Part shown: positions 7,598 through 48,219 of the stretch, piece after piece
How the letters are laid out: the number at the start of each line of letters is the position of its first letter
Numbering within the stretch: the stretch's first letter is position 1
NCBI GenBank assembly: GCA_027484965.1
Contig: JAIXRY010000015.1
Span: 91,807-155,806 of the forward strand
Direction: 5' to 3'
From: a bacterium
Lineage (GTDB): Bacteria; Patescibacteriota; Minisyncoccia; Phycocordibacterales; UBA9973
Length of the DNA stretch: 64,000 nt
Notes under the pieces: model-generated
What the model was told of the DNA's origin: nothing
Database searches by the model: none
Seen by the model: the letters and a program-made list of their open reading frames with translations, nothing else
Made by a program: the position numbers and the translations under genes

Positions 7598-8194
7598 TTA
7601 TTTTGAATTTGTTAGTGATTGATCAAATTTTCCCGGTAGGAAATTTATTGATTTTGGAGGATAGAGTCTAACCAAGGCTCTCCCAACCATATCTCTTTTT
7701 GGAAGGAAACCCCAATTACGTGAATCATAAGAAGCTGTTCTGTTATCTCCCATAACAAAGTATTGATCTTCTGGGACTGTGAATAGTAGGTTATTGTCAT
7801 TTCCTTTGTTCTCTACATAAGGTTCATCTATTACTACACCCAAAGGGTGTTTACTGTTTGAAATTTTTACCTCACTTCCATTGATTGAGATAGTGTCACC
7901 AGGTAGTCCAATAAGACGCTTGATAAAATATTTACTTTCATCCATTGGTGGTTTTATAACAACAACGTCACCGCGTGATGGATTGCCTGTTAGATATGAT
8001 ATTTGGTCGACAATAAGATAGTCACCATTGTGAAATGTTGGGAACATTGATAAACCGTCTACTATGAATGGCTTTGCAATGTACATGCGAATAGGAATTA
8101 CGATTAAAAGTGAAATAATAATGAAGCGCAAAACATCACGCCAATCTTCTTTCTTTTCTACTTTTTCCTCAACAATTTCTTGGGTTTTTTCCAT
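7598..8194 (-). CDS. lepB: signal peptidase I
   Basis: N-terminal TM; GLSMFPTF Ser box; GDNRTASYDSR box. Confidence 0.85.
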   Translation of the reverse strand: MEKTQEIVEEKVEKKEDWRDVLRFIIISLLIVIPIRMYIAKPFIVDGLSMFPTFHNGDYLIVDQISYLTGNPSRGDVVVIKPPMDESKYFIKRLIGLPGDTISINGSEVKISNSKHPLGVVIDEPYVENKGNDNNLLFTVPEDQYFVMGDNRTASYDSRNWGFLPKRDMVGRALVRLYPPKSINFLPGKFDQSLTNSK

Positions 8195-14010: not shown

Positions 14011-14425
14011 AATGAAAAAATCATTTTCAATTTTAGGAATATTAATCTTGCCTGTCATTATTTTAGGTTATTTCTGGTATCAGAATCAAAAAGATATTAT
14101 TCGTGGAATTTTTGCGAGATGTGAGCGATCTGAGTATTTTGTTTATCCTGGTCAATCGCGTAAAGAAATAGACGGAAGTCCTAAGATAGTAACACCAGAA
14201 GTAATAGATACAATACCTCAGGTTACTGTTTATTCAGGGGAGAAAGTACTAGTAAAAGATACTCCCGTCGAAATTAGTTTGTATGGCTTTGCTCCAGTTC
14301 CAGGACAAGAAGGATTTATTGGTCCGCTATATGGTATAAAAGGAAATGATAATAAAGTGTATGATATATGGAAAAGAGGTTCTGTTGATAAATGTGGAGT
14401 TATTTTTGCAATAAAAAAACTATAA
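13973..14425 (+). CDS. membrane-anchored hypothetical protein
   Basis: Likely start at internal Met 14012 ([16 protein letters not shown]), which removes the overlap with gyrA; followed by a terminator. Confidence 0.45.
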
Positions 14426-14463
14426 AAGAACAGAGGCGCCCTTCGGCGCCTCTGTTCTTTTAT
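14424..14463 (+). terminator. rho-independent terminator
   Basis: aaaagaacagaggcgcc-cttc-ggcgcctctgttctttt hairpin. Confidence 0.65.
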
Positions 14464-14594
14464 AGTTTTTAAAACCTAAAAACTAATCCCTACCTCTTTT
14501 CCCTCATCCTTTGTTGTAATATAACTATAATATATAGTAATTTTACCACTTGAAAATGACACTAAAATAGTTATACTTATTCTAAAACATTAAT

Positions 14595-14825: not shown

Positions 14826-14872
14826 AAAGGCGCCGTGTGAGATATTTACCTCGCTTGGCGCCTCTCTTTTTT
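14826..14872 (+). terminator. putative terminator
   Basis: aggcgcc ... ggcgcct stem then tctctttttt. Confidence 0.4.
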
Positions 14873-15446
14873 GTTGTTAACTTTTAACTTTTACCTTTTA
14901 ACATTATACTTAGAGTACATGTTTATAAATCCAGACAATATTGTAAATTCACTACCAATTCATCCAGGGATGGTTGTTGCTGATATTGGAGCGGGAAGTG
15001 GAGCTTTTTCTATTCCTTTTGCAAAAATAGTGGGTAATTCCGGAAAAGTCTATGCAGTGGATGTTCAAAGGGAATTACTTTCTCGTATTCAAAAAGACGC
15101 ACACTCACTCGGTCTTCGAAATATATCGATACTATGGGGTAATGCCGAACAGCATAATGGAACGCACCTAAAAGAAAAGAGTATAGACGTTGTTCTTGTT
15201 TCAAATGTCTTATTTCAAATAGAACACAAAGAAAATTTTGCAAAAGAGATTTTGCGCATACTTCGTCCAAATGGATTTGTCGTGTTAATAGATTGGTCAG
15301 AAAGTTTTGGTAATCTTGGTCCAAGATCTGATCACGTTTTTTCTGAAAAACAAGCAAAAGAGCTTTTTGAAAGTTCTGGATTTACTTACTCACAAAAAAT
15401 ATCTTCCGGCGCACATCATTATGGTATAATATTTAAACATGGATAG
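14871..15446 (+). CDS. class I SAM-dependent methyltransferase
   Basis: Motif I VADIGAGSGAFS; probable start at internal Met 14916 (MFINPDN). Confidence 0.7.
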   Translation: MLLTFNFYLLTLYLEYMFINPDNIVNSLPIHPGMVVADIGAGSGAFSIPFAKIVGNSGKVYAVDVQRELLSRIQKDAHSLGLRNISILWGNAEQHNGTHLKEKSIDVVLVSNVLFQIEHKENFAKEILRILRPNGFVVLIDWSESFGNLGPRSDHVFSEKQAKELFESSGFTYSQKISSGAHHYGIIFKHG

Positions 15447-16728
15447 TAAGAAATTTTCAATCATTCTTATTGTTATCTTCATTATTGGAGCAATATTTGC
15501 TGTACTTCTTTTTTCTGGTGCTATTAAGGTGGGAAAGTCTAAAACAGACACTACGCCAAGCGGTTCTGTTGTTATTTGGGGTACTCTTCCACAAGCATCT
15601 CTTTCTGATATCTTGGATAAAATAAATATGTCCACAAAGACTATTTCTGTTACATATATAGAGAAAGACGCTAATACTATTCCAAGTGACCTTACAAAAG
15701 CAACTTTAGGTGGATTTTCTCCTGATATTATACTTGCTCCAGAAGATACTATTTTTCAGATTTCATCATTAATTAAAAGCACTCCATACACGAGTTACCC
15801 AGAAAGTTTGTTCAGACAGTCTTTTATGGAAGCTGGGGAAGTCTTTTTGGATAAAGACGGTATTATTGCTTTTCCTGTTACTATTGATCCTCTTGTATTT
15901 TTTTATAACAGAGACGTGCTTTCTGTTTCTGGTTTTTCACAACCACCTCTAATATGGGATGAGTTGTTTATCATGAATGATTTAATCACTCTTAAGGATG
16001 CGAGTGGTACTATCACTCGCGCACTTATTCCTTTTGGGCAATTTGATAATGTATTTCACGCTAAAGATATATTAGCAGCGCTTATGCTTCAAAGTGGTAA
16101 TAAAATTGTAGACACAACAAGTGGTGTAAAAATATCAACACTCGCAGACACTACAGACACTTCTAAAGTAATAAACTTCTTCACTTCATTTAGTGATCCA
16201 ATATCTAATGTATATGCTTGGAATAGAGCTCTTCCTGAGGCACGCGATACTTTCTTGGTAGGGAAGCTTGCTTTCTATCCTGGTTTTGCAAGTGAAATTT
16301 ATACTCTTCGTGAAAAGAATCCCAATCTTAATTTTGCTCCAGGTCAACTTCCTCAAATAAGAGGTACAGAGCGTCCAATAACTCTTGCTCATGTTCTTGG
16401 AGTGTCTTTGACCAAGTCAGCGCCTAATCCAAACGCTGCGTATTCAGTAATGCTTTTATTGTCAGGGCAAGAATTTTCTGGAGCTCTCGCAGATACACTA
16501 GGTCTTCCGAGTGCTCGTCGTGACACTATAAACAAAGCTACAACATCTTCGTATGGAAACTTGTTTCTACGCTCTGCACTTATAGGACGCTCTTGGTTTG
16601 ACCCAAACAAAGATGCTACAAATTTAATATTTAAAAATATGATTTTAAATATTAATAGAGGTAGAAGTTCTGTTGACCAAGCAATCTCTCAAGCAAATAT
16701 TGAACTTAGAAGTCTTTTGAGTCAATAA
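15439..16728 (+). CDS. extracellular solute-binding protein (ABC transporter family 1-like), membrane anchored
   Basis: N-terminal TM; pattern VVIWGTLP ... SPDIILAP typical of SBP_bac_1 proteins. Confidence 0.5.
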   Translation: MDSKKFSIILIVIFIIGAIFAVLLFSGAIKVGKSKTDTTPSGSVVIWGTLPQASLSDILDKINMSTKTISVTYIEKDANTIPSDLTKATLGGFSPDIILAPEDTIFQISSLIKSTPYTSYPESLFRQSFMEAGEVFLDKDGIIAFPVTIDPLVFFYNRDVLSVSGFSQPPLIWDELFIMNDLITLKDASGTITRALIPFGQFDNVFHAKDILAALMLQSGNKIVDTTSGVKISTLADTTDTSKVINFFTSFSDPISNVYAWNRALPEARDTFLVGKLAFYPGFASEIYTLREKNPNLNFAPGQLPQIRGTERPITLAHVLGVSLTKSAPNPNAAYSVMLLLSGQEFSGALADTLGLPSARRDTINKATTSSYGNLFLRSALIGRSWFDPNKDATNLIFKNMILNINRGRSSVDQAISQANIELRSLLSQ

Positions 16729-16735
16729 TATTATT

Positions 16736-18970
16736 ATGAAAAAATATTCACCTATCATTACATTATGTCTTGCGCTTAGTTTGTTTGTTTTATTCCCAAA
16801 ACAAATACACGCATCATTTGATTTTACTGCTTCAGTATCTTCTGATATTGTTGAAAATGCCAAACCTGGAAATGATGGCACTAAATTAAACTTAAGATAT
16901 TCGGTAACAGCAGCTTCTGGAACAACTCAAACAAAGAGTATTAAAGTTTTCAAAAAAGACAATCCAACAGAAGTTGGTACTGTAAGTAATATTAGTACTA
17001 CTTATGTAAAACTTTACGATGAGGTTGGATGGGGTAGAAACGGCTCTCTGCCATATCATAACAAAGCGTTTTATGAACAAATAGGTACAAATCAGATTAC
17101 AAAAAGAAATTCTCTTTTTGTCTTGCTTTATAATGCTGTTCCAAAACAAGTTGATAAGCCAAATGAATTAATAAAAGGTACTCTTGTTTCTTGGCAAGAA
17201 ATACCTCTCAAAATAAATACTGTTTCAAATGATGGAAATATTGTTTTTGATTCTTTGATAAAAGATAAAAGTTACATTCCAGAAATTTTAGTCGTCAATA
17301 CTGGTTATGGTTCCAATTTAGTCGTCACTGGTAGTGCAATTAAAACAGGTAATACTGTAGGTGCTGGAAATACCTCAAGTGACGATCCTTTTGTGCAAGC
17401 TTCTATTAAGACTAAAGTGGTTTCTAATGTTACTCAATATAATATCTGTGTTGAGATAAATAAATACGCCAAAGCTGATAAGCCAATCAAAATAACAAAA
17501 GGAACTATTGTTGATGGAATTTTAGTCCCAAGCACTCCTTTGAGTGTTGTGAGTGTTACAGATCAAGTTCCAGAGACGCGTATTACTGATACTATGGCTC
17601 GTAGATTGCTTGACTGTACAGAACCTCAAGCGCTTCTTGCAAATACTTCATATGTCGCTGATTTTGATTTTTTAATTACAGATGACGATGCGTATGAACA
17701 AGATCCGGTAACAAGACCTTACTCAGTTCGTGTTTTAGTAAAGACTTATGCAAGTGGACTTGGAGCTGATATTAGTAGAGTGCCTTTATCTAATGGAAAT
17801 CCTGGTACAAATCAAACACCTTCAATCGGTAATTCTCCAAATCTAATTGCAACAAAATTAAGTAATGGTACACACAATGCTTGTGGTTATGTTGATCAAG
17901 CAGATAAGCTTTCAGATATAAACATATCTCTAACTATGGGGACACTAAGTCAGACAGGTAATGCAAGTCCTGTTATTACTCCTGATTATGATAATCGTAC
18001 AGTCACAAAAGCAAAAAGTGATATTAATGAGCAAATAAATCAAAGTACCAAGAGAGGTACTTACTGTACAAATTTTGGAGAACTACTTCCTGGAAACTAT
18101 GTCTTTAAAATGAGTACCATTTTTAATGGGCTTCCAAATATTACAGAATACAGAACTCTTTTTATTGGAGGGTTAAATCCTGGTAGAGTTCCTATGGTTG
18201 ACCCTGTAATTTCTGTTGTTTGGTCAAAAAAGAACAATGCATTTATTGTTACCGGAAAAATAACAAATCTTCCTCCTAATAATGGGGGTACAATAGTGCT
18301 TGTAAAAAAAGGTACTTTTCAAGAAATTAAGCCACTGCAAGCTGATATGGATGGATACTCTACTCCACAAAGAGAGTTTATTATTAGTGCGAAATTTAGA
18401 AATCTCGCCCCTGGTATCTATGTTGCTGTTGTGAGACCTTTACATTCAGATGCTACTCCATTTATTACACCTCAAGGTAGAATTGAGAGAGTTTCAGAAG
18501 AATTTGAAACCGAAAATATAAAAGCGATAAGTCCTGATGATACATTAGATCCGGGAACAGGTACAGGAACGGGAACTGGTTCCGGAACTGGTGGAGGTTT
18601 GTTTGATGATATTGGTGGAGATTTGCTTGAAATCCCAAAAAACGGACTTGTGTTGTGTGGAAGACCTGGTCAGCCTGCTTGTGATTTTAATATGTTGTTG
18701 ATAACTATAAATAAGGTTATTAATTTTGCACTTACGTTAATTGCTACTCCTATAATGCTCTATATGTTGTTTAAAACAGCATGGGAATTCTTTACAGCAG
18801 GAGGGAGTACAGATCAGATCAAGAGAGCAAAACAAAGACTACTCGCTATTGTTATTGGTTATGTGATTGCTCTTACTGCATGGCTTGTTATTAAGACAAT
18901 TATTATACTTCTGGTAGGTGAGGATAATATAACGGGAACTAACCCCATATTTAAGACATTCTTCAATTAA
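16736..18970 (+). CDS. large secreted protein with C-terminal VirB2/TrbC-like two-TM pilin module
   Basis: Signal peptide; about 640-aa extracellular region; Gly-Thr linker (GTGTGTGSGTGGG); C-terminal LLITINKVINFALTLIATPIMLYMLFKTAWEFF..GGSTDQIKRAKQ..LLAIVIGYVIALTAWLVIKTI has the same TM-loop-TM architecture as the four downstream small proteins. Confidence 0.5.
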   Translation: MKKYSPIITLCLALSLFVLFPKQIHASFDFTASVSSDIVENAKPGNDGTKLNLRYSVTAASGTTQTKSIKVFKKDNPTEVGTVSNISTTYVKLYDEVGWGRNGSLPYHNKAFYEQIGTNQITKRNSLFVLLYNAVPKQVDKPNELIKGTLVSWQEIPLKINTVSNDGNIVFDSLIKDKSYIPEILVVNTGYGSNLVVTGSAIKTGNTVGAGNTSSDDPFVQASIKTKVVSNVTQYNICVEINKYAKADKPIKITKGTIVDGILVPSTPLSVVSVTDQVPETRITDTMARRLLDCTEPQALLANTSYVADFDFLITDDDAYEQDPVTRPYSVRVLVKTYASGLGADISRVPLSNGNPGTNQTPSIGNSPNLIATKLSNGTHNACGYVDQADKLSDINISLTMGTLSQTGNASPVITPDYDNRTVTKAKSDINEQINQSTKRGTYCTNFGELLPGNYVFKMSTIFNGLPNITEYRTLFIGGLNPGRVPMVDPVISVVWSKKNNAFIVTGKITNLPPNNGGTIVLVKKGTFQEIKPLQADMDGYSTPQREFIISAKFRNLAPGIYVAVVRPLHSDATPFITPQGRIERVSEEFETENIKAISPDDTLDPGTGTGTGTGSGTGGGLFDDIGGDLLEIPKNGLVLCGRPGQPACDFNMLLITINKVINFALTLIATPIMLYMLFKTAWEFFTAGGSTDQIKRAKQRLLAIVIGYVIALTAWLVIKTIIILLVGEDNITGTNPIFKTFFN

Positions 18971-18988
18971 TAGGTTATAATTATTTAT

Positions 18989-19441
18989 ATGAAAAAGATA
19001 GTACCAACGTTTGGAATTTTAGGAATACTTTTTTTAGGAAGTATTTCACCTGTTTTTTTGTCTAACCAGAATCTTGTTCATGCTCAAGGAACATCGACAG
19101 GTACAACGACTGGGGGTGGGGGTGCGTCTACAGGGTCAGCATCTTCGAATACAAACAAATCATTCAACCTTTCTTTTACAATAGATAATCCTATTAAAGC
19201 AAACAACCTCCAAGAACTCATTGAAAGACTTTTAAAGCTTGTGTATCTTGTAGGTGTTCCAATACTTGTTTGTTTCTTGCTTTGGGCTGGGTTTCTATTT
19301 GTTGAAGCTCGCGGAAATGATAAGAAATTAGTTATTGCTCGTCAAAATTTATATAACGTCGTTATTGGGGCAGTTTTATTCCTCGGTGCATACACAATAG
19401 CAAAAGTTGTAATAGCAACATTAAAAGATATATTCAACTAA
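18989..19441 (+). CDS. pilin-like protein (TrbC/VirB2-like T4SS-pilin family resemblance)
   Basis: Signal peptide, Gly/Thr/Ser-rich linker, then two TM helices split by a short charged loop (WAGFLFVEARGNDKK). Confidence 0.5.
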   Translation: MKKIVPTFGILGILFLGSISPVFLSNQNLVHAQGTSTGTTTGGGGASTGSASSNTNKSFNLSFTIDNPIKANNLQELIERLLKLVYLVGVPILVCFLLWAGFLFVEARGNDKKLVIARQNLYNVVIGAVLFLGAYTIAKVVIATLKDIFN

Positions 19442-19445
19442 TAGT

Positions 19446-20264
19446 ATGAAAAATTTATTATACAAAATCATTGTTCCTTCATTACTTGTACTTGCTTTCA
19501 TAATCCCTATATTTCCCCAAAAAGCACAAGCTCTGACAGATCAAGAACAACAAGTAATTCTCCAGACAGCACTTTCTGCTATTATGATAGCTTTTCCGTA
19601 TATTTGTGGAGGTGCGTCTGTACCTACAGATACACCAGAGCAAGCGCAGCAACGTGAAAAAGTTAGACAAGCTTGTAGAAATACCGGGCAAATAAGTTCT
19701 CAAGTTATGTATATATTGATACAGTTATACCCTGAAGTATGTCAAAGAATGCCAAATGTTTGTTCTAGTATTATGCAAGTATTGGGTGCACTTGGTGGAA
19801 GTGGGGTTGTAGGTGGTTTTGGTGGTACAGGCCCTACAGTTATAGGAACTGGAGCGGGAGGAGCTATCTCTACTGGTCCAACTGCTGGTGGTGGTGGAGC
19901 TTTCGTTTCTACTGGCCCAACAGTTGCTAATATTACATACGCGTCCGGTCCTGCAAATGGAGGGTGCCCATCTGGTATATCTAATATTTCTGATATATAT
20001 CTACTCGCAAAATGTATTTTGGCTGGAATGGTTATTCCGATGATATTTATACTAGCATTCTTGGTATTTCTTTGGGGTGTGATGCAATTTATAAGAAAAG
20101 GAGACAATCAAGCAAAACGTCAAGAAGGTATTAATTTTATGTGGTACGGAATAGTTTCTCTTTTTGTAATGACTTCAGTGTGGGGAATTGTTAAGATTGC
20201 TACGACGACTCTCGGAGTAGATGGCACATATATACCAAAAGTAGAATCCCCAAAGAAAAACTAG
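19446..20264 (+). CDS. pilin-like protein (paralog)
   Basis: Same architecture; shared motifs FLWGVMQFIRKGDNQAKR and LFVMTSVWGIV. Confidence 0.5.
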   Translation: MKNLLYKIIVPSLLVLAFIIPIFPQKAQALTDQEQQVILQTALSAIMIAFPYICGGASVPTDTPEQAQQREKVRQACRNTGQISSQVMYILIQLYPEVCQRMPNVCSSIMQVLGALGGSGVVGGFGGTGPTVIGTGAGGAISTGPTAGGGGAFVSTGPTVANITYASGPANGGCPSGISNISDIYLLAKCILAGMVIPMIFILAFLVFLWGVMQFIRKGDNQAKRQEGINFMWYGIVSLFVMTSVWGIVKIATTTLGVDGTYIPKVESPKKN

Positions 20265-20356
20265 CACTTATATATATATATTTTGTATAATATGAAGAGT
20301 AGGCGCTGTCGTGTCTATGGACTATTAGTTTTTATTATTATTTATAATTTTTTATT

Positions 20357-20758
20357 ATGAAAAAGTTTATTCCTTTTGCAAGTGCACTTGCTCTTCCAGC
20401 TCTTGCTTTTGCACAAACTCGACCAGATTTTACTTATCTCGAATCTACATTTAATGCAGGTAAAGGTGTTTTAAGTGGTGCTATTAATGTGATAATGATT
20501 CTTGCATTCGTATATTTCCTTTGGACAGTTATTCAGTTTATTAGAGCAGAAGCTGGTAAAAAAGCAGATGCTCGTACAAATATGATTTATGCAATCATTG
20601 GTTTGTTTGTAATGACTTCTGTTTGGGGTATTGTTGGTATTCTTCGTCAAACAACTCAAGCAGGTCAAGGCGGTCAAGGTACTATTACTTGTCCTCCAGG
20701 AACTACTGCACAACAAGTAACTGGCGCTAATGGTCTTAGAACTGTTGTTTGTTACTAA
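20357..20758 (+). CDS. pilin-like protein (paralog)
   Basis: FLWTVIQFIRAEAGKKADAR and LFVMTSVWGIV motifs. Confidence 0.5.
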   Translation: MKKFIPFASALALPALAFAQTRPDFTYLESTFNAGKGVLSGAINVIMILAFVYFLWTVIQFIRAEAGKKADARTNMIYAIIGLFVMTSVWGIVGILRQTTQAGQGGQGTITCPPGTTAQQVTGANGLRTVVCY

Positions 20759-21087
20759 GTATGTTTTGGTTAATTCCTTTTACTCAAATAGCTCATGCAC
20801 AAGATGTGGGAGAAAAGTTGATTAATACTGTTTTAGACAAGATTATTAATCCACTAGTATTCTTCTTGTTCGTTGCAGCTCTTATATACTTTCTTTGGGG
20901 TGTCTTTATGTATCTCAAAGATGGTGATAAACAAGACGCTAGAACTACAGGTTCACGGCACATTCTTTGGGGGCTGGTGGGTTTGGTTATTATGATGAGT
21001 GTATACGGCATCATACGACTCGTTGTAAACACCTTCAACTTTCAAGCACCAAGTCGTACTGTAGACTTGAAGAGTATAGGGAAATAG
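20749..21087 (+). CDS. pilin-like protein (paralog)
   Basis: FLWGVFMYLKDGDKQDAR and VIMMSVYGII motifs. Confidence 0.5.
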   Translation: MLLSMFWLIPFTQIAHAQDVGEKLINTVLDKIINPLVFFLFVAALIYFLWGVFMYLKDGDKQDARTTGSRHILWGLVGLVIMMSVYGIIRLVVNTFNFQAPSRTVDLKSIGK

Positions 21088-21175: not shown

Positions 21176-21212
21176 AATAAAAAAAGCCCCGCCGTAAGGT
21201 GGGGCTTTTTGT
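21176..21212. terminator. bidirectional terminator
   Basis: aaaaaaagcccc-gccgtaaggt-ggggctttttg between convergent genes. Confidence 0.55.
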
Positions 21213-21231: not shown

Positions 21232-21813
21232 CTAATCTAACAAAAATTTAAAATTAATCGGATTAATCCAAAATTTGAATTTGTTCCATAAAGATAATGG
21301 CTCTTTGGAAATTATTACAAATTGTGAGTCAGATGTTGCTTGTAAGTGATATAAGCCAACTCCATGTTCTCCTGCATTAATTGGAACATTTGGACAGAAT
21401 GTGTATTCTGCATAGTCTGGATAAATAACCTTAACACAATGTACTTGAGGATTAATCACAATCCTTTCGTTGTAAACATCGAAAGTGTAATCTTGTCCTT
21501 TTGTAACTGTAATCGTCTCAGAATAAGGAATATTCATTCTAATAATGAATCCGATAATTAAGATGATTATTCCTGGTCCTTTTATAAATTTCCATAAAGA
21601 AAATTTCTCAGTTTGTGTTTCAGAAGAATTGTTTACAGAATTTGTTGTCCCTGTACCTGATGTTGTGGTGGTTGTGGTAGTGTTTTGATTATCTCCACCT
21701 TGCTGATTTTGGTTTGTTGGTTTTTTGGTTATTTTATTAATCCAAAAAATTATCGCCCAAATTAGTAAAAAAAGAATAATTCCAACACTAAGCATTGTCG
21801 TCATCCTTTCCAT
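21232..21813 (-). CDS. membrane protein, possible NfeD-like partner of the SPFH protein
   Basis: Two TM segments, Thr-rich linker, C-terminal beta-rich domain; overlaps the upstream SPFH-like gene by 26 nt in the same order as qmcA-ybbJ. Confidence 0.3.
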   Translation of the reverse strand: MERMTTMLSVGIILFLLIWAIIFWINKITKKPTNQNQQGGDNQNTTTTTTTSGTGTTNSVNNSSETQTEKFSLWKFIKGPGIIILIIGFIIRMNIPYSETITVTKGQDYTFDVYNERIVINPQVHCVKVIYPDYAEYTFCPNVPINAGEHGVGLYHLQATSDSQFVIISKEPLSLWNKFKFWINPINFKFLLD

Positions 21814-22903
21814 CTAAAAGAATATTTGTACTTTTATCTCCCAATACCAATGTTTTGATTTTAGTTTCTTTTATTGCATCAGCTATAAGGATTATCTTAG
21901 TGTTAGGATTATCCTTCATTGCGTTGGCTAATTCAATTTTAGGTTTGTTTTTAGCTCTACCAACTTTTTCTTCATGATAAGCTAAACCATCAGCAGTTTT
22001 CTTTTTTTGCTTAAATTCTTCTTCAGCAATTTCTGTGTTTTTTCTAGCCTCATCTAGTTTAATCCTGGCTTCTTTTACAGCTTTGAAACTTTCATCAAGT
22101 TGGTAGCCAATAAAGTTTACCGAATTGATCCTAATACCAGTAGTATCTTCAATTTTTGGATTTCCTCCTTCACTTGAATGATCTTCGTTGATAGATAAGA
22201 TTCCTCCAATTAAATCATCGTTACTCGCAGAGCTTTTTGTTTCTGCTTTTGTTTCTTTTGTTACATCCTCTAATGATCTTCTTCCCACATATTCACGAAC
22301 CACGTCCGATACTCTTCCGGTTAGAAGAGCAAGATAATTACTTGACCCAAATAACGCTGTTCCAGCGTGAGTGAGCTCCACTCCAATTACTAGATCCATA
22401 TCAATAGCGATCTCATCTTCTGTTTCACACCCAGTAACTCTAACTGCGTAAGGATACAGTGCTTTGATTTGAGATACAGGTTCATCGCGAGGAATAAATT
22501 CATACTTCATTGTTGTCTTGTCTTTGATAGCATACTTCACCCAACTGTGTTTGTATGTGTGCTTACGATACATTGGGTATAGGTCCATCCATATAAAACC
22601 TTTGTTTGGCTTTGGGGTAAAATTAATACTACGATCAGTTTCTTTAAAAATTTCTCCTGTAGTAGGGTGTACAACTTTGCCAGAAATATTACCAATATAT
22701 TTTACTGGTGTATCTCCTTTTTTAATAACGATAACAGCTCCCGCAGGGACTGTTGTAAAAAATCTACTTTCCTTGCCATTTGCAAGATCTTCTCGCGAGA
22801 GATATTCTTGTAATAGAGGGAAGTAGTAGAAGTAGATAAGTAGGATCCCAATTATCAACCCAGTGATAATTACTGCCCAGACGATTGTGTTTATTGTTTC
22901 CAT
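21788..22903 (-). CDS. SPFH/band-7 (stomatin/flotillin-like) domain membrane protein, putative
   Basis: N-terminal TM then TVPAGAVIVIKKGD (compare IVPEGHVGVVERFGK), a conserved middle, and an Ala/Glu/Lys-rich coiled-coil C-terminus. Confidence 0.4.
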   Translation of the reverse strand: METINTIVWAVIITGLIIGILLIYFYYFPLLQEYLSREDLANGKESRFFTTVPAGAVIVIKKGDTPVKYIGNISGKVVHPTTGEIFKETDRSINFTPKPNKGFIWMDLYPMYRKHTYKHSWVKYAIKDKTTMKYEFIPRDEPVSQIKALYPYAVRVTGCETEDEIAIDMDLVIGVELTHAGTALFGSSNYLALLTGRVSDVVREYVGRRSLEDVTKETKAETKSSASNDDLIGGILSINEDHSSEGGNPKIEDTTGIRINSVNFIGYQLDESFKAVKEARIKLDEARKNTEIAEEEFKQKKKTADGLAYHEEKVGRAKNKPKIELANAMKDNPNTKIILIADAIKETKIKTLVLGDKSTNILLDGKDDDNA

Positions 22904-23420: not shown

Positions 23421-23503
23421 GTGCTCGGGAGAGGACTTGAACCTCCATGGATCACTCCACCTGTTCCTAAGACAGGCGCGGCTACCAATTACGCCACCCG
23501 AGC
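23421..23503 (-). tRNA. tRNA-Leu (anticodon TAG)
   Basis: Minus-strand 83-nt cloverleaf read by eye: acceptor GCTCGGG/CCCGAGC, anticodon loop CTTAGGA, long variable arm, T-loop TTCAAGT. Confidence 0.8.
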
Positions 23504-23643: not shown

Positions 23644-26600
23644 ATGTTAAATAATTTTAAATATTTTATAACCAGAAGCTATACACTTTTTGTGGTATCT
23701 ATCTTCATCTTCACATTTTCTATATTAAAAGTATCAGCTGTATACTATCCTACAGACAACATAACTAATCCTACATGTGCACCAGGTGCAGTAGGATGTT
23801 ATGTATCTTTACTTCCTGATCAGGTAGGTAATGCAGGTAAACTTTTAATTACTAACGGTACAAATCCTTCTTGGTCCAATACTATTGGAAATGATCTTAC
23901 TATAAATACTCTGACTGTTGGCTTAGGTGGTGGAAGTGTTTCTACTAACACAGCTGTTGGTGTTGAGACATTGTTTAGTAATACTACTGGAGGTGCTAAT
24001 ACTGCTAATGGTTTTAGATCTTTAAGAGAAAATACTACAGGTGATATGAATAGTGCTCTTGGATATAATTCACTTAGATATAATACAACCGGATCTGAAA
24101 ATGTTGCTTTTGGATATAATTCAATGTTTGCCAATACTTCAGGAGGTAAGAATTCAGCTTTTGGTAAAGAAACACTTTCTAGTAATACTACAGGTACTTA
24201 TAATACTGCAATAGGATATCAATCTCTCTTGTCTAATACATCAGGTGCATACAATGTTGCAATAGGTAATAATGCGCTTGATGCAAATACTACAGGTATA
24301 AGTAATATTGGATTTGGTCATAACGCTCTAGGAGTTAACACTTCCGGCTCATACAATATTGCTTCAGGTTGGAATACTTTATCTGCAAATACTACAGGTA
24401 GTCATAATATTGCTTTTGGTTCAGACACTCTAGGTTTAAATACTACAGGTATTCAAAATATTGCACTGGGACAACAGGCGCTAGTTAATAATTTGTCTGG
24501 TCAATATAATGTTTCAATAGGGACACAGTCACTTTTTAATAATACTACCGGTGGCAACAATCTAGCTTATGGGTACTATGCTGGTTACAATAGTCAGACA
24601 GGTTCAAATAATATTTTTATTGGAGCACAAACTGGTCTTGGTATAACAACAGGTTCAAACAACACAATCATTGGTGCTAATGTTACAGGACTCTCTTCAT
24701 CTCTTTCAAATAATATTATTATTGCAGACGGTGCAGGGAATCAAAGAATTAATATAGATAGTAATGGTAATGCAGAAATAGGTGGAAATATTTATTCTGC
24801 TGGTTTGAAGTGGAGTACAACAGCCCCTGTAGCTGACAGGCAATGGGTTGATGTAGGTTATGGAAATGGACTCTTTGTTGCTGTAGCTCAAGGTTCTGGA
24901 ACAGACAGAATTATGACATCTCCTGATGGTGTAAACTGGACATTGAGAACTCACTCTACTTCATCATTAAAATCAATCACTTATGGTAATGGAATATTCG
25001 TAGCGGCTGGTCATTCTGGTACCCGTTTTTTAACCTCTACAGATGGAATAACTTGGACAGCCCGTACTGGTACAGGACAATCGTTTTATGTAACTTACGG
25101 TAATGGTCTTTTTGTTGCTTCAAAAATAGATAATGCTGGGCTTAGAATTATAACATCTCCAGATGGAATAACTTGGACAGATAGAGTAACTCCTGTAGGA
25201 GCTGATAAACCTTGGGTTGGAATAACTTACGGTAATGGTCTTTTTGTTACTGTGGCTGAGACGAATGGAACACAGTCTATTATGACATCTCCAGATGGTA
25301 TAAACTGGACACTACAGACACACCCATCTGTTTCTTCTGGTGGATTTGAAAACGTTGCTTATGGTGATGGTAAATTTGTAGCTGTCGGTATTGGTGGTTT
25401 AGTTATGACATCTCCAGACGGAGTAAACTGGACACAACAGTCTTTCCCAAATGCAGCCCTTCTTTATCGAATAACTTATGCTGAGGGCATGTTTGTTACA
25501 GCTGGAGCTTTCTCTACAACAAACAACAATATTTATACTTCACCTGATGGTATAACTTGGACAACAAGAGTTGTTCCTAAAAATGATTGGGCTGGAGTTG
25601 CTTATGGTAATGGACGTTTTGTAATGGTTGCCTTTTCTGGAACTCTCGGTAGTCGTGTTGCATACTCTGGTAAAATGTCTACACTAGACACTTTAACAGC
25701 AAATATATTCCACGGTAATCATTTCTTTACTGCTAACATCGGCATCGGCACAACCTCTCCCTTCGGCAAACTCGACGTTGCAGGCTCATCATCAAGTACA
25801 GACTTAGTAGCATTCGACACAAACAGAAGTATCTCTGTAATCAACACAAACACTACAACAAACAACGCACAAGGTATAGCACTCCGTTCATATGGTACAG
25901 ACGGAACAACTATCCAATCAGGTGTAAAACTCCTTGCAGTTAACACAGCAAGAACAGCTACAACAATAACTTCTGATCTTGCAATCCTTACCAACAATGC
26001 TGGTACGATAAGTGAGAAGATGCGTATTCTTGCAAATGGAAAAGTAAATATTGGAACGGGTAATGTTTATAATACTGATTCAAATACTCTTCTGAATGTT
26101 TATGGTAATATGGGGGTTGTTAGAGCTAATAATCCTGCCTCTGTTTTTGTAGGAAGAACTCAATCAGGAGGACTTCCTACAGCTAGTGCTACATTAGGTA
26201 GTCTCGGAGCTGCGCTTTTTGATGGGACAAATTGGGTGGCTGGTGGTAATAGATTTGCTTTCTTTGCTGCAGAAAACTGGACAAATAGTGCGCAAGGCAC
26301 TTGGATGAGATATGCAAGTGTTCCAGTGGGTTCGAATGCATCTGTTAATATTTTAGAAATAACACCTTCAGGACAATTTAATTTTGGTACAAGCACTCTC
26401 TATCCAGCTCTCACAGAAACATCTCGATTGATGGTTAATGGTCTAGGTTCAACATCATCTACATTTACAGCTCAATTTCATAATTCAACAGGAACTTCAA
26501 ATTCTTTAGTTGTTCGTGATGATGGTAGAGTAGGTATAGGAAACAACGCTCCATCACACACCCTCCACGTCGGCTCAGGCTCTGTAGTCGGCATCGTCTC

Positions 26601-27264
26601 CCGCTTCCAAAACAGTACCGGAACCTGTGACATCAACCCAACAACAACATCACTCTCATGTAGTTCAGATATCAACCTCAAGAAGAACATCACAACTCTA
26701 AAAGATAATCAACCTTTCGTACTAAACTCTCAAACTCCAGATACAAATGTCCTTAAGAATCTAAACAAACTAACACCAGTTATCTACAACTGGACTACAG
26801 AACAAGACACAGCTACAAAACAAACAGGATTCATCGCACAAGACGTAGAACAAATCTTCCCATCTCTTGTATCTACAGACCCTACAACAAACCTCAAGTC
26901 TCTTAACTACATAGGTCTCATCCCATATGCTATAGAAGGTATTAAAGAGTTAGATATCAAGGTTAATCAGTTGAGTTCTTTGGATGATACAGTTGAAGGA
27001 ACATTTGCTTCATTGATAAAATCATATTTATCTAATGCTACAAATCGTATAACTCGTATATTTACAGGAGAAGTTTGTTTGACTGATAGTGATGGAAGTT
27101 CTGAATGTTTGAACAAACAAGAACTACACCAGTTGAAGCAATTGCTTAATAATCAAGGAGTATCAAATAATACTAGTAATCCTGTAGTAGAAGAAGAAGT
27201 TGTAATTCCTGATGAGCCTGCAATTACACCTGAAAATCCTGTAATAGAAGAAGTAATTGAATAA
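23644..27264 (+). CDS. giant tail-fibre-like surface protein with C-terminal peptidase S74 intramolecular-chaperone domain
   Basis: 1206 aa. N-terminal signal anchor; about 20 repeats of a 14-15 aa N-x-A-x-G unit, Hep_Hag/tail-fibre-like; eight V-x-YGNGLFVAV...IMTSPDG(V/I)NWT Asp-box-like propeller repeats; C-terminal SSDINLKKNI...TGFIAQDVEQIFPSLV...LNYIGLIPYAIEGIKELDIKVNQL matches the auto-cleaving chaperone domain of phage endosialidase/tail fibres. Confidence 0.6.
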   Translation: MLNNFKYFITRSYTLFVVSIFIFTFSILKVSAVYYPTDNITNPTCAPGAVGCYVSLLPDQVGNAGKLLITNGTNPSWSNTIGNDLTINTLTVGLGGGSVSTNTAVGVETLFSNTTGGANTANGFRSLRENTTGDMNSALGYNSLRYNTTGSENVAFGYNSMFANTSGGKNSAFGKETLSSNTTGTYNTAIGYQSLLSNTSGAYNVAIGNNALDANTTGISNIGFGHNALGVNTSGSYNIASGWNTLSANTTGSHNIAFGSDTLGLNTTGIQNIALGQQALVNNLSGQYNVSIGTQSLFNNTTGGNNLAYGYYAGYNSQTGSNNIFIGAQTGLGITTGSNNTIIGANVTGLSSSLSNNIIIADGAGNQRINIDSNGNAEIGGNIYSAGLKWSTTAPVADRQWVDVGYGNGLFVAVAQGSGTDRIMTSPDGVNWTLRTHSTSSLKSITYGNGIFVAAGHSGTRFLTSTDGITWTARTGTGQSFYVTYGNGLFVASKIDNAGLRIITSPDGITWTDRVTPVGADKPWVGITYGNGLFVTVAETNGTQSIMTSPDGINWTLQTHPSVSSGGFENVAYGDGKFVAVGIGGLVMTSPDGVNWTQQSFPNAALLYRITYAEGMFVTAGAFSTTNNNIYTSPDGITWTTRVVPKNDWAGVAYGNGRFVMVAFSGTLGSRVAYSGKMSTLDTLTANIFHGNHFFTANIGIGTTSPFGKLDVAGSSSSTDLVAFDTNRSISVINTNTTTNNAQGIALRSYGTDGTTIQSGVKLLAVNTARTATTITSDLAILTNNAGTISEKMRILANGKVNIGTGNVYNTDSNTLLNVYGNMGVVRANNPASVFVGRTQSGGLPTASATLGSLGAALFDGTNWVAGGNRFAFFAAENWTNSAQGTWMRYASVPVGSNASVNILEITPSGQFNFGTSTLYPALTETSRLMVNGLGSTSSTFTAQFHNSTGTSNSLVVRDDGRVGIGNNAPSHTLHVGSGSVVGIVSRFQNSTGTCDINPTTTSLSCSSDINLKKNITTLKDNQPFVLNSQTPDTNVLKNLNKLTPVIYNWTTEQDTATKQTGFIAQDVEQIFPSLVSTDPTTNLKSLNYIGLIPYAIEGIKELDIKVNQLSSLDDTVEGTFASLIKSYLSNATNRITRIFTGEVCLTDSDGSSECLNKQELHQLKQLLNNQGVSNNTSNPVVEEEVVIPDEPAITPENPVIEEVIE

Positions 27265-27329: not shown

Positions 27330-27445
27330 TCATAGATTTTCATAAATAAGCAAAAGCTTTTCGATCCCTACACGCATATGAAGCAGTTCATATGCTTGAG
27401 GGGACAAAAAAACAAAAACACCAATTTGGTGTTTTTGTTTTTTTG
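27330..27445. repeat. tRNA-associated palindromic repeat unit (copy 2, downstream of tRNA-Lys)
   Basis: aaaagcttttcgatccctac + gcatatgaa-gcag-ttcatatgc hairpin + ttgaggggac(a)n ... tgtcccctca long palindrome ending inside the tRNA acceptor. Confidence 0.5.
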
Positions 27446-27518
27446 TCCCCTCAGTAGGGATCGAACCTACGACATTCTCCTTAAGAGGGAGCTACTCTAC
27501 CAGCTGAGTTATGAGGGG
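27446..27518 (-). tRNA. tRNA-Lys (anticodon CTT)
   Basis: Minus strand; acceptor CCCCTCA/TGAGGGG (unusual C1-G72), D-loop AGCTGGTA, anticodon loop CTCTTAA, T-loop TTCGATC. Confidence 0.7.
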
Positions 27519-27628
27519 TCTTATATTATATTTTAAAACTTACTTTTACCCCACAATTCTTTTGTTGAAGCCACTACAGCTGAGTTATGAGGGGATTATA
27601 TTAAAAAAAATATGAAGGGGTCTCGCCT

Positions 27629-27727
27629 TAATGAAAAGTCTTTTGAAGCCCATCAAGGCAATAAGCTGGGCACCTGTGGACGGTCTTGGGCACAAAGTAA
27701 ATAAACCTAGAAGGTTTATTTACTTTG
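27629..27727. repeat. tRNA-associated palindromic repeat unit (copy 3, downstream of tRNA-Leu-TAA)
   Basis: aatgaaaagtcttttgaagccc motif then gcacaaagtaaataaacc-taga-aggtttatttactttgtgc hairpin running into the tRNA 3' end. Confidence 0.5.
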
Positions 27728-27809
27728 TGCCCAGAGTGGGGGTCGAACCCACATCCCTTGCGAGACACGATTTTAAGTCGTGCGCGTATACCAATTCCGC
27801 CATCCGGGC
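27728..27809 (-). tRNA. tRNA-Leu (anticodon TAA)
   Basis: Minus strand; acceptor GCCCGGA/TCTGGGC, anticodon loop CTTAAAA, long variable arm, T-loop TTCGACC. Confidence 0.8.
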
Positions 27810-27871
27810 AAATTATTTATTTTTAAATTATAGCATAAAATTCAGGGACAGGAATTAAATGGCGGGAATCT

Positions 27872-28002
27872 CGACTTACAGTCGCGGGTACTTTTCAATT
27901 TTTTACTTCATAAAAAATAATGAAAAGTCTTTCGATTCCCGCACGCAAGCAAAGCAGTTTGCTTGCTCCACGTCTCAAGAAAACCCCTAATGGGTTTTCT
28001 TG
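27872..28002. repeat. tRNA-associated palindromic repeat unit (copy 4, downstream of tRNA-Cys)
   Basis: cgact-tac-agtcg hairpin, ggtacttttcaat, ataatgaaaagtctttcgattcccgc, gcaagcaaa-gcag-tttgcttgc hairpin, ccacgtctcaagaaaacccc-taat-ggggttttcttgagacgtgg. Confidence 0.5.
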
Positions 28003-28074
28003 AGACGTGGGCGGGAATCGAACCCGCGCATGGCGGTTTTGCAGACCGCAGCGTTACCACTTCGCCACCACGTC
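28003..28074 (-). tRNA. tRNA-Cys (anticodon GCA)
   Basis: Minus strand; acceptor GACGTGG/CCACGTC, discriminator U, anticodon loop CTGCAAA, T-loop TTCGATT. Confidence 0.8.
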
Positions 28075-45961: not shown

Positions 45962-46118
45962 ACCAATAAGAGTTAGAACAAATACGTCTAGTCGATTGAT
46001 AGATAAAAGCTTTCCACAAAATAGGTATTTATTTGTATTACGCACCGGGATATAATGTAACTTATATGAAAAAGTGTTTTATAATAGATAAATTAACGAT
46101 TACATTTGCACTCCTCTC

Positions 46119-46442
46119 ATGGTTTGTACCTTTATTTGTCAGTTTTTTTTAGTAGATCCAGAAACAAAAGTAACCATTATTAATCCAATACTTTTTAAAG
46201 TATTGATGATTGTAATTGTTACTATCATAACTTTTTATGGTTATAGTAAAATAAATACAAAAACTGGTATAAGTATTCAGACGTCTAATACTTTTTTGGC
46301 TCTTAATTTTTTACTAGACATTGTAGTTCTAATAGTGTTGTTTAGTGTTCCTTTTATGGTATGGGCTACAACCATACTACCTGTATATATACTAGTGTTT
46401 TACGGAGTGTGCTTTATCATTAAAGGACATGGTATTCAGTAG
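46119..46442 (+). CDS. small membrane protein, hypothetical
   Basis: 107 aa, three TM helices; contains a T8 tract at 46143-46150. Confidence 0.35.
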   Translation: MVCTFICQFFLVDPETKVTIINPILFKVLMIVIVTIITFYGYSKINTKTGISIQTSNTFLALNFLLDIVVLIVLFSVPFMVWATTILPVYILVFYGVCFIIKGHGIQ

Positions 46443-46815
46443 TTTTAATCCACCGTTTACAAATAAAACTCTAGAGGACTTTTTTGAATTTTATACAAAA
46501 CATACTAATGACGCTAATACTCTTAGAGACTGGATTTTAGATACTTACCCAGATTTAGATATAGGTCTTTCCTATCACGTTCCTTTTTTCTATATAAACA
46601 AAAAGAAGTTATTTTACTTATACTATTTCAAAAATGAAGACGAAGAACTTGCTCTTGAAATCAGTTTTATTAAAGGTGTAAATATAAAAGATAAATATGT
46701 TTTGTTTCAAGAAAAAAACAAAGAGACTAAGTCTATAATTATTACAAATGTATCTGCGCCATTTTTGGATAAACTAAGGTATTACATAGATACTGTAATT
46801 GAACAAAATATTTAA
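46429..46815 (+). CDS. DUF1801/YdhG-like protein, putative
   Basis: About 128 aa; LRDWILDTYPDLDIGLSYHVPFFYINKKKLFYLYYFKN pattern resembles YdhG family. Confidence 0.4.
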   Translation: MVFSSFNPPFTNKTLEDFFEFYTKHTNDANTLRDWILDTYPDLDIGLSYHVPFFYINKKKLFYLYYFKNEDEELALEISFIKGVNIKDKYVLFQEKNKETKSIIITNVSAPFLDKLRYYIDTVIEQNI

Positions 46816-47085
46816 TATATACTCTCAAGTACCGTCGAAAGTGAAGGCATCAACGACAGCCTTACAGAGCTTGACCAACCACGATTCTAGCTCAAGTACT
46901 CCAGCAATACTATATAAAAACACCCGCGATAAAGTGGGTGTTTTTATATAGTATATTGTTGCTGTGTGGACTCGAACTGTGGGTCGCAATCCTCGTCGAG
47001 AGGATGAAGGTCTCGAACTCAGCATAGTGAGAGAAGAGTCCTAGTTTCTCAGTATTATGTAAAAAATTATTCAAGAGTTAAAAAA

Positions 47086-47119
47086 TAAAAAAGTCTCCAT
47101 TATTAATGGAGACTTAAAA
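47086..47119 (-). terminator. rho-independent terminator for the 47120-47629 gene
   Basis: aaaaaagtctccat-tatta-atggagactt; the T-run is on the minus strand. Confidence 0.5.
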
Positions 47120-47629
47120 TTATTGTACTTGATGTGGAACTATATTTAATAGCGTGTCAAGCGGTTGTTTTAAAAGTTTGTGCAAATCTTTGATTATTTC
47201 TTTGCAATTTTTTCCTTTAATGGAGATAGAACGTGCTTCCATTATTTCTCTATCTTTACCTGAAAATATGTCAGCAGCTATAATCTGAACTTTACCACCT
47301 TTTTTAAGTACAGCTCTCATATATCCTCCATTTAAATGTTCTCGTTTAATTGTAAAAATAAAATCTTGAAAAACTATTGTAATCTCAAGTCTCAATACAC
47401 CCCAAAGTGTTTTCCTCTTTTTCTCTGAAGTAGGGTTATGACATCCTGTTCCATGAATATTGTAATTTTCTAGCCTATTTAATTTCCCAGGTCTGTTTTC
47501 ATAAAAAATTAAAGAAGTAAGTAGTGTTGCAATAACAATATCATTTTCAGAAGGCTCTTCTTTCTCTAATAAAGATTGAAGGTTTTTAATTTGGTCAGGA
47601 CTGTCCCGATTTTTAAAATCTATTTTCAT
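47120..47629 (-). CDS. orphan hypothetical protein
   Basis: 169 aa soluble protein, sole minus-strand gene in an AT-rich island-like stretch. Confidence 0.4.
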   Translation of the reverse strand: MKIDFKNRDSPDQIKNLQSLLEKEEPSENDIVIATLLTSLIFYENRPGKLNRLENYNIHGTGCHNPTSEKKRKTLWGVLRLEITIVFQDFIFTIKREHLNGGYMRAVLKKGGKVQIIAADIFSGKDREIMEARSISIKGKNCKEIIKDLHKLLKQPLDTLLNIVPHQVQ

Positions 47630-48012
47630 ATTATTTAATTTTTTAATTTACTTTATAATATAGTATTTTTTTTAATCTGTCAATATATACTATATGTATA
47701 GATTGTATAGTTTAATTTTCTTTCAACAGGTATTTCAAAATCAGAAATTTTTCCATGTTAAAATTATTAAGAACAACAAATTAATAAGTAAATGAGAAAA
47801 ATAAAATATTATAGTAAAATTTTTTTCTGAATATTTTTATTTATGTTTATTTTTAAACAAAATAAAATTATGCCTAATCCTAAAATGAGGAGGGGAAGAA
47901 AAGTAGAAAGAATTCACTCATAAAGCCGCAAGTATGCGGCTTTTATAATTACTTGCTTTTTTGTCTTAATGTGTTAAAATTGTATCGAAACCTTTAAAAA
48001 TATTTTATTATT

Positions 48013-48219
48013 ATGAAAAAGTTCTTTTTATTATTGATTGTTTTTATGTTGTTTGTTCCTGGGTCATACGCTCAGACAGGTCCAGGTGAGGATGACCTTG
48101 AAGAAACAGGAGATGATGTGCCTATATCAGGAGTTGAATTTCTTGTTCTTTCAGCTGTTGCTTTTGGATTTTATTCTGTAAACAAAAAACAAAAAGAATT
48201 GAAAAGCATTACTGCTTAA
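48013..48219 (+). CDS. small exported peptide with C-terminal TM anchor and basic tail
   Basis: Signal peptide, acidic stretch, VPISGVEFLVLSAVAFGFYSV-NKKQKELK; terminator immediately downstream. Confidence 0.35.
   Translation: MKKFFLLLIVFMLFVPGSYAQTGPGEDDLEETGDDVPISGVEFLVLSAVAFGFYSVNKKQKELKSITA

Follow-up and report, generated by a model that had tools for sequence, protein, structure and literature searches.

A gyrA-linked locus of five T4SS_pilin-family proteins in Paceibacteria, one with a large ectodomain

A 64,000-nucleotide stretch of Patescibacteria DNA (the window, part of a 156,834-bp contig, within which all positions below are given) encodes at 16736-21087 on the plus strand five consecutive pilin-like proteins, each with a predicted leader and a module of two hydrophobic helices. 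We consider it probable that this region, with the two genes preceding it, is the structural-subunit locus of a type IV secretion system (T4SS) of the Patescibacteria type, in which a methyltransferase and a membrane-anchored solute-binding protein (SBP) are encoded together with five subunits of the family PF18895 (T4SS_pilin). The five genes are referred to here as slots 1 to 5, in their order along the strand. Tandem arrays of VirB2-like pilins in Patescibacteria have already been published, and the basic finding is an instance of them. The features that we did not find in published accounts are a fixed set of five slots in a core locus remote from virB4, the linkage to methyltransferase and SBP genes, and the fusion of pilin modules to ectodomains.

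Using CONJScan profiles together with PF04956 and PF18895, a survey that covered 3,035 Patescibacteria genomes (Quinonero-Coronel et al. 2025, PMC12102498) recovered VirB2-like pilins in 1,948 VirB4-positive assemblies, near virB4 in 1,135, and described 441 arrays, which contain 2-11 pilin genes each and average 25 % identity; gyrase, solute-binding proteins and pilin fusions receive no mention in that paper. In Candidatus (Ca.) Southlakia epibionticum a series of predicted pilins in the T4SS cluster is essential by transposon sequencing (Wang et al. 2023, PMC10633639), and a 2025 review counts six divergent VirB2-like pilins in this species and speculates on a pilus conduit (PMC12857230). 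Recent reviews call the function of the Patescibacteria T4SS completely unknown; in the single species examined so far, epibiotic growth requires the T4SS and its pilin genes.

A module shared by five consecutive genes

The five consecutive open reading frames (ORFs) that the initial annotation had grouped as a tandem array are present, and hydropathy analysis confirmed that each encodes two hydrophobic segments toward its C terminus with a short K/R-rich loop between them. The array had been likened to a pilin family common in the candidate phyla radiation (CPR), and this comparison is borne out by PF18895, a family typical of CPR/Patescibacteria: all five proteins match it, three of them above the gathering cut-off of 26.6 bits. 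The scores are 35.4 bits for the 150-aa protein, 29.7 bits for the 133-aa protein and 28.6 bits for the 112-aa protein; the 272-aa protein, at 23.2 bits, falls below the cut-off, and the 744-aa protein reaches 21.0 bits at full length and 26.7 bits when its module is scanned alone. All 102 modules sampled from related loci match the family at E<0.01. By profile matching, membership in PF18895 is established.

Comparison of the paralogs with phmmer gave 52 bits for the 272-aa and 133-aa proteins, 47 bits for the 272-aa and 112-aa proteins, 32 bits for the 133-aa and 112-aa proteins, 24 bits for the 744-aa and 150-aa proteins and 18 bits for the 150-aa and 112-aa proteins, and the family splits into two subgroups, one formed by the 744-aa and 150-aa proteins and the other by the 272-aa, 133-aa and 112-aa proteins. 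A consensus proposed earlier for the whole array (FLWGV.. followed by LFVMTSVWGIV) fits the second subgroup but not the first. A hidden Markov model (HMM) of the module matched 393 of 6174 ORFs of related loci, all of them on the gyrA strand and all but one adjoining another module ORF; 211 other ORFs with at least two hydrophobic segments were not matched, nor was any of 1965 shuffled controls (0/1965). On these comparisons the relationship among the paralogs is real homology that extends beyond shared hydrophobicity.

An AlphaFold2 (AF2) model of slot 5 (predicted local distance difference test score, pLDDT, 81.5) is a hairpin of helices H7-53 and H58-91. This fold is a generic one: structure comparison did not discriminate between T4SS pilins and other helical hairpins, and a search of PDB sequences with the module profile returned noise only (a de novo designed channel, rhodopsin). 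Similarity to TrbC/VirB2 (PF04956) reaches E<0.01 in 32 of the 102 modules (best E-value 3.8e-6). NCBIfam gave weak matches only, to the model for a 'pilin-like conjugal transfer protein' of a Mycoplasma integrative and conjugative element; some relatives are named 'pilin' at NCBI, and slots 2 and 4 of one relative, Ca. Nomurabacteria GW2011_GWA1_36_15 (locus L072), carry the UniRef label 'TrbC/VIRB2 family protein'. Homology to canonical VirB2 is plausible on this evidence.

An assignment of the array to type IV pilins or type II secretion system (T2SS) pseudopilins was considered and rejected. The leaders are of type I, with A-x-A sites, and lack the class III G↓F/M-x-x-x-E site (arrow, cleavage); the conserved module is a C-terminal two-helix hairpin, and no type IV pilin family appears among the listed Pfam matches.

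The five proteins differ in what surrounds the module. Slot 1 (16736-18970, plus strand, 744 aa; ORF confirmed) begins with a signal peptide read from the sequence (residues 1-26, cleavage at IHA↓S), followed by a modelled all-beta ectodomain (residues 27-600, nucleotides 16814-18535), a Gly/Thr/Ser linker (residues 601-632, nucleotides 18536-18631) and the pilin module (residues 633-744, nucleotides 18632-18967), which comprises a Cys-x7-Cys juxtamembrane motif, a first transmembrane helix (TM1), the basic loop and a second helix (TM2). Slot 2 (18989-19441, plus strand, 150 aa) consists of a signal peptide (VHA↓Q, residue 32), a Gly/Thr/Ser linker and the module. In slot 3 (19446-20264, plus strand, 272 aa) the signal peptide (AQA↓L, residue 29) is followed by a cysteine-rich helical segment, a long Gly-rich linker, a Cys pair and the module. 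Slot 4 (20357-20758, plus strand, 133 aa; AFA↓Q, residue 19) has the module first and then a C-terminal G/Q-rich tail containing the Cys pair C112 and C132. Slot 5 (20761-21087, plus strand) encodes 108 aa from the ATG at 20761, 2 nt past the slot 4 stop codon; an alternative TTG start at 20749 gives the 112-aa form, and gene callers and orthologs use the ATG. Its hydrophobic leader is short, with cleavage at AHA↓Q, and leads directly into the module. A signal peptide had been assigned to each protein, and all five leaders do end at an A-x-A-type site, the fifth being only 13-17 aa long. The Gly/Thr/Ser-rich linker, also thought to be general, lies N-terminal to the module in three of the five (744, 150 and 272 aa); the 133-aa protein has the tail beyond TM2 in its place, and the 108/112-aa protein has neither.

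Five slots and a variable ectodomain in Paceibacteria

A search of genome contigs with the 744-aa protein as query gave no match, and loci were recovered with GyrA as the query. We sampled 80 loci anchored on GyrA (70-98 % identical) in species-representative genomes, together with the window and further loci, and removal of redundant copies left 72 loci with module ORFs. The GyrA relatives are Patescibacteria of the class Paceibacteria, represented by metagenome-assembled genomes (MAGs) labelled Ca. Nomurabacteria or Paceibacterota; the GyrA of the reference MAG, DALYDY010000004.1 (L010), is 98 % identical to that of the window. Exactly five consecutive module genes lie downstream of gyrA, on the gyrA strand, in 63 of the 72 loci, and six are present in 6 loci; the remaining loci, with other counts, are probably truncated contigs. 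The array is a core chromosomal locus adjoining gyrA in about 70 species.

The best cross-genome BLAST match of a module was in the same slot for 321 of 326 modules (63/63 for slot 2), and identity was 44-53 % for the same slot between genomes and 24-50 % between slots within one genome. Consensus, leader type and cysteine pattern are specific to each slot. Slot 3 (52/52) and slot 1 (47/63) have a Cys pair ahead of TM1, and slot 4 has one beyond TM2 (35/63); the placing of such pairs on either outer flank agrees with an N-out/C-out topology in which the basic loop is cytoplasmic. Slot 5 is the most conserved subunit among close orthologs (79-94 % identity). Signs of recent duplication occur only in slots 3 and 4, in the form of 49 % within-genome identity, 11 fused double modules and the six-gene arrays. 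A fused double module of about 210-276 aa occupies slot 3 in loci L055, L058, L059, L068-L070, L080, L082 and L084-L088. Because orthology follows the slot, and because consensus, leaders and cysteine patterns are slot-specific, the locus bears the signature of five ancient, non-redundant components and not of a variable amplified array.

These data bear directly on the possibility that the subunits are interchangeable major-pilin variants serving antigenic or host-range variation, as proposed for Bartonella Trw. Quinonero-Coronel et al. suggested such a role for arrays with a mean identity of 25 % (PMC12102498), and the array proteins do evolve much faster than the flanking housekeeping genes. 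Slots that are orthologous across 63 genomes, each with its own signature and in a copy number fixed at five, are difficult to reconcile with interchangeability, as is the restriction of duplication to slots 3 and 4, and we regard this explanation as very unlikely. The fixed five-subunit organisation argues instead for a heteromeric structure.

The subunits also differ in what they carry. Slot 1 ranges from 127 to 749 aa in five-slot arrays and reaches at least 250 aa in 28 of 63, with the module always C-terminal. Slot 2 is long in occasional genomes (up to 613 aa), and slot 5 has a C-terminal extension of up to about 520 aa in 11 genomes; in L015, L019, L021, L040, L041, L067 and L077 this extension measures 200-520 aa and has no Pfam match. 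For the ectodomain of the 744-aa protein (residues 27-600), a word-indexed search of a 5.8-billion-protein collection found homologs, in five clusters, in the closest relatives only. A jackhmmer search among the array loci matched no other locus, and an exhaustive HMMER search of 1.84 billion representatives returned its own cluster and one marginal match, without a family name. In other lineages the long slot 1 proteins have fn3, Pur_ac_phosph_N (fibronectin type III-like, FnIII-like) or IPT/TIG domains in its place. As modelled by AF2, the 744-aa protein is all-beta to about residue 590 (pLDDT 70-83 at about residues 380-590), followed by the disordered Gly/Thr/Ser linker and the hairpin, and Foldseek searches with this model gave only tandem immunoglobulin (Ig)/FnIII-type ectodomains, as generic matches.

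Comparison with the reference MAG shows how unevenly the locus has diverged: identity is 98 % for GyrA, 83 % for the methyltransferase, 78 % for the SBP, 70-79 % for slots 2-5 and 55 % for slot 1. Within slot 1, alignment to two ortholog clusters of about 56 % identity (P0004 and P0005) gave 31-33 % identity over residues 221-370 and 70-71 % over the module. Such a distribution characterises an exposed recognition domain that diversifies or recombines rapidly while the assembly module carrying it is conserved, and the outer domain encoded by this first gene may recognise the host. The earlier suggestion that the 744-aa protein is a tip or adhesin subunit fits a predicted all-beta, Ig/FnIII-like ectodomain that is orphan and fast-evolving and is joined to a conserved module.

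Upstream partners and transcription unit

Two genes directly upstream of slot 1, and on its strand, accompany the array in every array locus compared (69/69). The first encodes a class I S-adenosylmethionine-dependent methyltransferase (14871-15446, plus strand, 191 aa from a TTG codon) with matches to Methyltransf_11/25/31 and Ubie_methyltran; gene callers start it at 14919, giving 175 aa, and it overlaps the start of the SBP gene by 8 nt. In array loci it always lies between gyrA and the SBP gene. The second gene encodes a membrane-anchored, carbohydrate-type SBP-like protein (15439-16728, plus strand, 429 aa; SBP_bac_8 5e-11, SBP_bac_1 6e-10), whose best solved relatives are sugar-binding proteins (4r9f, 3.8e-7). 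Across the loci these SBP-like proteins are 429-445 aa long with an N-terminal membrane anchor, and the distance from the SBP stop codon to the slot 1 start is 7 nt in the window and typically 2-8 nt. Ca. Yonathbacteria have the same order, gyrA-methyltransferase-SBP, followed by six pilin genes.

The spacing from the methyltransferase gene through slot 5 is an overlap and then 7, 18, 4, 92 and 2 nt. Upstream, a strong bidirectional terminator formed by a perfect palindrome with a 20-bp stem (14420-14465) separates the gyrA-side genes from the methyltransferase-SBP-pilin unit. Just past it lies a candidate promoter, TTGAAA-16-TATACT (14550-14577, plus strand), a match to the consensus pattern that is not significant alone. 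Downstream, between slot 5 and a convergent gene for a 193-aa protein, is a bidirectional intrinsic terminator, GCCCCGCC-GTAA-GGTGGGGC (21185-21212), with an A-run upstream and a T-run downstream; it was read by eye from the sequence, and the pattern scan did not list that site. The tight gene spacing and the terminators at both ends indicate that the methyltransferase, the SBP and the five slots form one predicted transcription unit. The AT-rich 92-nt gap between slots 3 and 4 (20265-20356, plus strand), which contains a TATAAT hexamer, recurs in relatives at about 65-185 nt and may hold an internal promoter or a processing site; the RNA fold in this gap was not significant (z -1.4).

Two convergent membrane-protein genes lie downstream of the array (21232-22903, minus strand): the 193-aa protein has a Thr/Asn/Gln-rich low-complexity stretch, and a 371-aa protein has a weak SPFH/Band_7 match. 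They were rejected as partners: of 58 loci, 11 have the SPFH-like gene and 4 have the 193-aa gene. An SPFH-like gene also lies downstream of the array in Ca. Yonathbacteria; the association is patchy and not core. The pilin-cyclising enzyme of RP4, TraF, is a homolog of S26 peptidases, and a LepB-type Peptidase_S26 gene (7598-8194, minus strand) is present about 9 kb upstream of the array; it is most likely the housekeeping signal peptidase.

The constant presence of an SBP raises the possibility of an SBP-dependent uptake device, in which the orphan SBP captures a host ligand and the five hairpins form a channel independent of VirB4. The tight coupling of the SBP gene to slot 1 in 69 of 69 loci speaks for such a device, no ABC (ATP-binding cassette) permease or ATPase was found near the SBP gene (no ABC_tran or BPD_transp match among the scanned window ORFs), and reviews speculate on uptake via the Patescibacteria T4SS. 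Known transporters, however, are not built from two-helix hairpins with Sec leaders, the locus has no energy-coupling component, the SBP could use an ABC transporter encoded elsewhere, and the PF18895-type family is found near virB4 in 1135 assemblies (PMC12102498). We judge an uptake device highly improbable.

Further downstream, a gene at 23644-27264 (plus strand) encodes a protein of 1206 aa that combines a hydrophobic segment at its N terminus with long Asn/Thr/Gly-rich repeats, propeller-like 'TSPDGxxWT' repeats (DUF6242) and a C-terminal Peptidase_S74 intramolecular-chaperone domain of the kind typical of phage tail fibres and endosialidases. It is flanked by tRNA-Leu (23421-23503, minus strand) and tRNA-Lys/Leu/Cys (27445-28074, minus strand) genes, is not at the same position in locus L004 and has a 90 % cluster with a single member; it looks like a strain-specific insertion beside tRNA genes. 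This gene, 2.5 kb downstream of the array, and marginal matches to the holin model TIGR01598 (E 0.089) and to MscL-type models could suggest holin-, bacteriocin- or immunity-type proteins of a degraded prophage or toxin locus. The scores are far below the cut-offs, lysin, integrase and toxin genes are not nearby, the tail-fibre-like gene is the insertion that L004 lacks, and a core locus next to gyrA in about 70 species effectively refutes this origin, whose probability we take to be close to negligible. Elsewhere in the window, at about 46000-52000, GC content falls to 28-30 % against about 35 %; several ORFs there, 47120-47629 and 48261-48758 among them, have no Pfam match, and the stretch adjoins YibE/F-like and two-component-system genes.

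Secretion machinery and the proposed filament

The initial annotation noted that VirB4, VirD4 and VirB6 are not encoded in the window and proposed that the array is independent of a conjugation system. The first statement holds for the window ORFs, the rest of which are housekeeping (DnaE, RNase HII, Fmt, Def, HisRS, LepB, Pth, S1, GyrA, IF-2, RbfA, ClpB, TopA, DprA, SerRS, FtsQ, Dus, HolB, PBPs and MraW). Independence from a T4SS is not supported: the window covers only 64 kb of the contig, VirB2-like genes lie away from virB4 in about 40 % of VirB4-positive assemblies (PMC12102498), and a relative with the array has the core genes elsewhere. That relative is the Ca. Nomurabacteria genome introduced above, GCA_000991415.1, for which entries in Table S3 of the survey place a VirB2-like protein (PF18895), VirB4, TrsD, VirB3 and VirB6 at genes 292-298 (PMC12102498); its gyrA-linked locus has the same five-slot array, far from those genes. 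Table S3 entries for the same genome also include isolated matches 'not near virB4' at gene 551 (T_virB2) and gene 554 (FATA_PrgF) (PMC12102498). These are probably slots 2 and 5 of the gyrA-linked array, because they lie three genes apart and slots 2 and 5 give TrbC matches; the mapping is an unconfirmed inference. A cluster look-up and a search of the supplement did not confirm that KKP98470 and KKP98473 map onto the array of L072; the accessions shown belonged to other, identical genomes. Among the 627 'PrgF' matches reported for Patescibacteria (PMC12102498), some may be PF18895 array members, and some matches listed as isolated 'VirB2' may likewise be slots of this array. It is most parsimonious to suppose that genes elsewhere specify the secretion machinery, with the gyrA-linked array providing subunits.

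On the T4SS reading, each subunit would be exported by Sec and its leader cut at the A-x-A site, leaving a mature two-helix membrane hairpin whose termini face outward and whose basic loop faces inward. A machine of VirB4, VirB3, VirB6 and TrsD would then extract the hairpins and assemble them into a heteromeric surface filament or conduit. Given their slot-specific orthology, the five subunits could act as separate components, in the manner of one major subunit with minor and tip subunits. Slot 1 would be a low-copy tip or decorating subunit whose module attaches a lineage-specific string of Ig/FnIII-like beta-sandwiches outside the cell; its modularity and fast divergence make the ectodomain the most likely host- or surface-recognition element, perhaps an adhesin. 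The SBP could serve as a sensor or ligand-capture partner. A precedent is PrgZ of pCF10, an SBP whose gene accompanies a Gram-positive T4SS; PrgZ, however, is of the OppA type and not homologous to the SBP described here.

Several observations weigh against this reading. Neither VirB4, VirB3, VirB6 nor VirD4 was found among the ORFs of the 64-kb window, and a T4SS in its genome is an extrapolation from a relative with 71 % GyrA identity. The similarity to TrbC/VirB2, which the initial annotation had predicted, extends to 32 of the sampled modules at sub-cut-off level, but in the window the highest PF04956 scores, 24.7 bits for slot 5 and 18.7 bits for slot 2, remain below the gathering cut-off of 27.9 bits. 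An hhalign comparison of the 102-module alignment with seven annotated VirB2/TrbC proteins from MPF_T plasmids, each encoded directly 5' of virB3 and most directly 3' of virB1, aligned TM1, loop and TM2 of the module co-linearly with mature VirB2, but the match was weak (probability 10.7 %, P 0.003). Confidence in the AF2 model of the 744-aa protein is low (mean pLDDT 49) because the alignment drawn from only five clusters is shallow. An N-terminal domain as bulky as 600 residues may be difficult to accommodate in a VirB2-type helical lattice except at the tip or at low stoichiometry, and polymerisation or pilus formation, which we infer here, is still undemonstrated in the literature for any PF18895 protein.

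Such points leave room for a non-polymerising role, in which the PF18895 hairpin is a membrane anchor or a PrgF-like part of the platform of a monoderm T4SS, slot 1 is an ordinary surface protein and there is no filament. Pili are generally absent from T4SSs of the Gram-positive type, with which the Patescibacteria VirB4 has its affinity; the hairpin fold is generic and the VirB2 similarity weak; and one presumed member of the L072 array was detected by the FATA_PrgF profile rather than a pilin profile, subject to the unconfirmed mapping. An anchor or platform does not readily explain five separately conserved paralogous hairpins in strict order, nor does it account for slots 2-5, which mostly contain little beyond the module (median 108-149 aa) and would have nothing to anchor; the profile similarity to TrbC/VirB2 also speaks against it. 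We therefore hold this role to be unlikely, if deserving of attention, and continue to favour the subunits of a filament or conduit.

The array can be placed among known systems. It shares with other Patescibacteria arrays (SEML1_0006-0019 of Ca. S. epibionticum ML1, the 'Sec secreted array' of TM7x and the 441 arrays of the survey) tandem, divergent PF18895/VirB2-like hairpins with Sec leaders and a relaxase-poor, chromosomal T4SS background of monoderm type. The published arrays sit within the virB4 cluster or adjoin it, and reports of them come mainly from Saccharimonadia and Microgenomatia, whereas the present one belongs to Paceibacteria and lies remote from virB4, behind gyrA, the methyltransferase and the SBP, with five orthologous slots and subunits fused to large ectodomains. 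Canonical VirB2/TrbC/TraA pilins (PF04956) are alike in their leader, their two helices with a short basic loop and their small mature size. They differ in having one gene per system, in a virB1-virB3-virB4 operon, where the array has five paralogs after a methyltransferase and an SBP; they have no large ectodomain, and the similarity found here is below the family threshold. Enzymes for cyclisation or acetylation, which act on canonical pilins, were not identified for the array. The Trw system of Bartonella resembles the array in its tandem pilin paralogs (trwL/VirB2, with trwJ/VirB5 copies), for which broader host-surface interactions have been proposed (cited in PMC12102498), but its copies are recent amplifications within the T4SS locus and the slots are ancient and orthologous.

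Other surface machines offer parallels of function. In T2SS and type IV pilus sets (GspG with GspH/I/J/K; PilA with FimU/PilV/W/X/E and PilY1), about five co-encoded paralogs share one module and the tip subunit is the largest or adhesin-bearing; the analogy is functional only, since fold and biogenesis are unrelated to those of the array. VirB5, CagL/CagI and PrgB are tip or adhesin proteins of T4SSs that are separate from the pilin and lack its module. They resemble slot 1 in its proposed role, but in slot 1 the presumed recognition domain is covalently joined to the N-terminal side of a VirB2-like module. The survey detected no PrgB-like adhesins in Patescibacteria (PMC12102498).

The locus suggests that surveys of virB4 neighbourhoods under-count Paceibacteria pilin arrays. 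It also presents a strictly linked orphan SBP and a methyltransferase as unexpected partners, and a module with exchangeable Ig/FnIII-like ectodomains as a candidate determinant of host specificity in Paceibacteria, a class of which hardly any members have been cultured. A bolder proposal, which we put forward as speculative and quite doubtful, is that a seven-gene Paceibacteria core module builds a heteromeric T4SS filament on which slot 1 presents rapidly exchanged host-recognition domains and the SBP senses or captures host glycans. If true, it would give the VirB2 pilus class its first adhesin fused to a pilin and its first multi-subunit, major-plus-minor architecture, and the mechanism of host specificity and nutrient acquisition in non-Saccharibacteria CPR would become directly testable.

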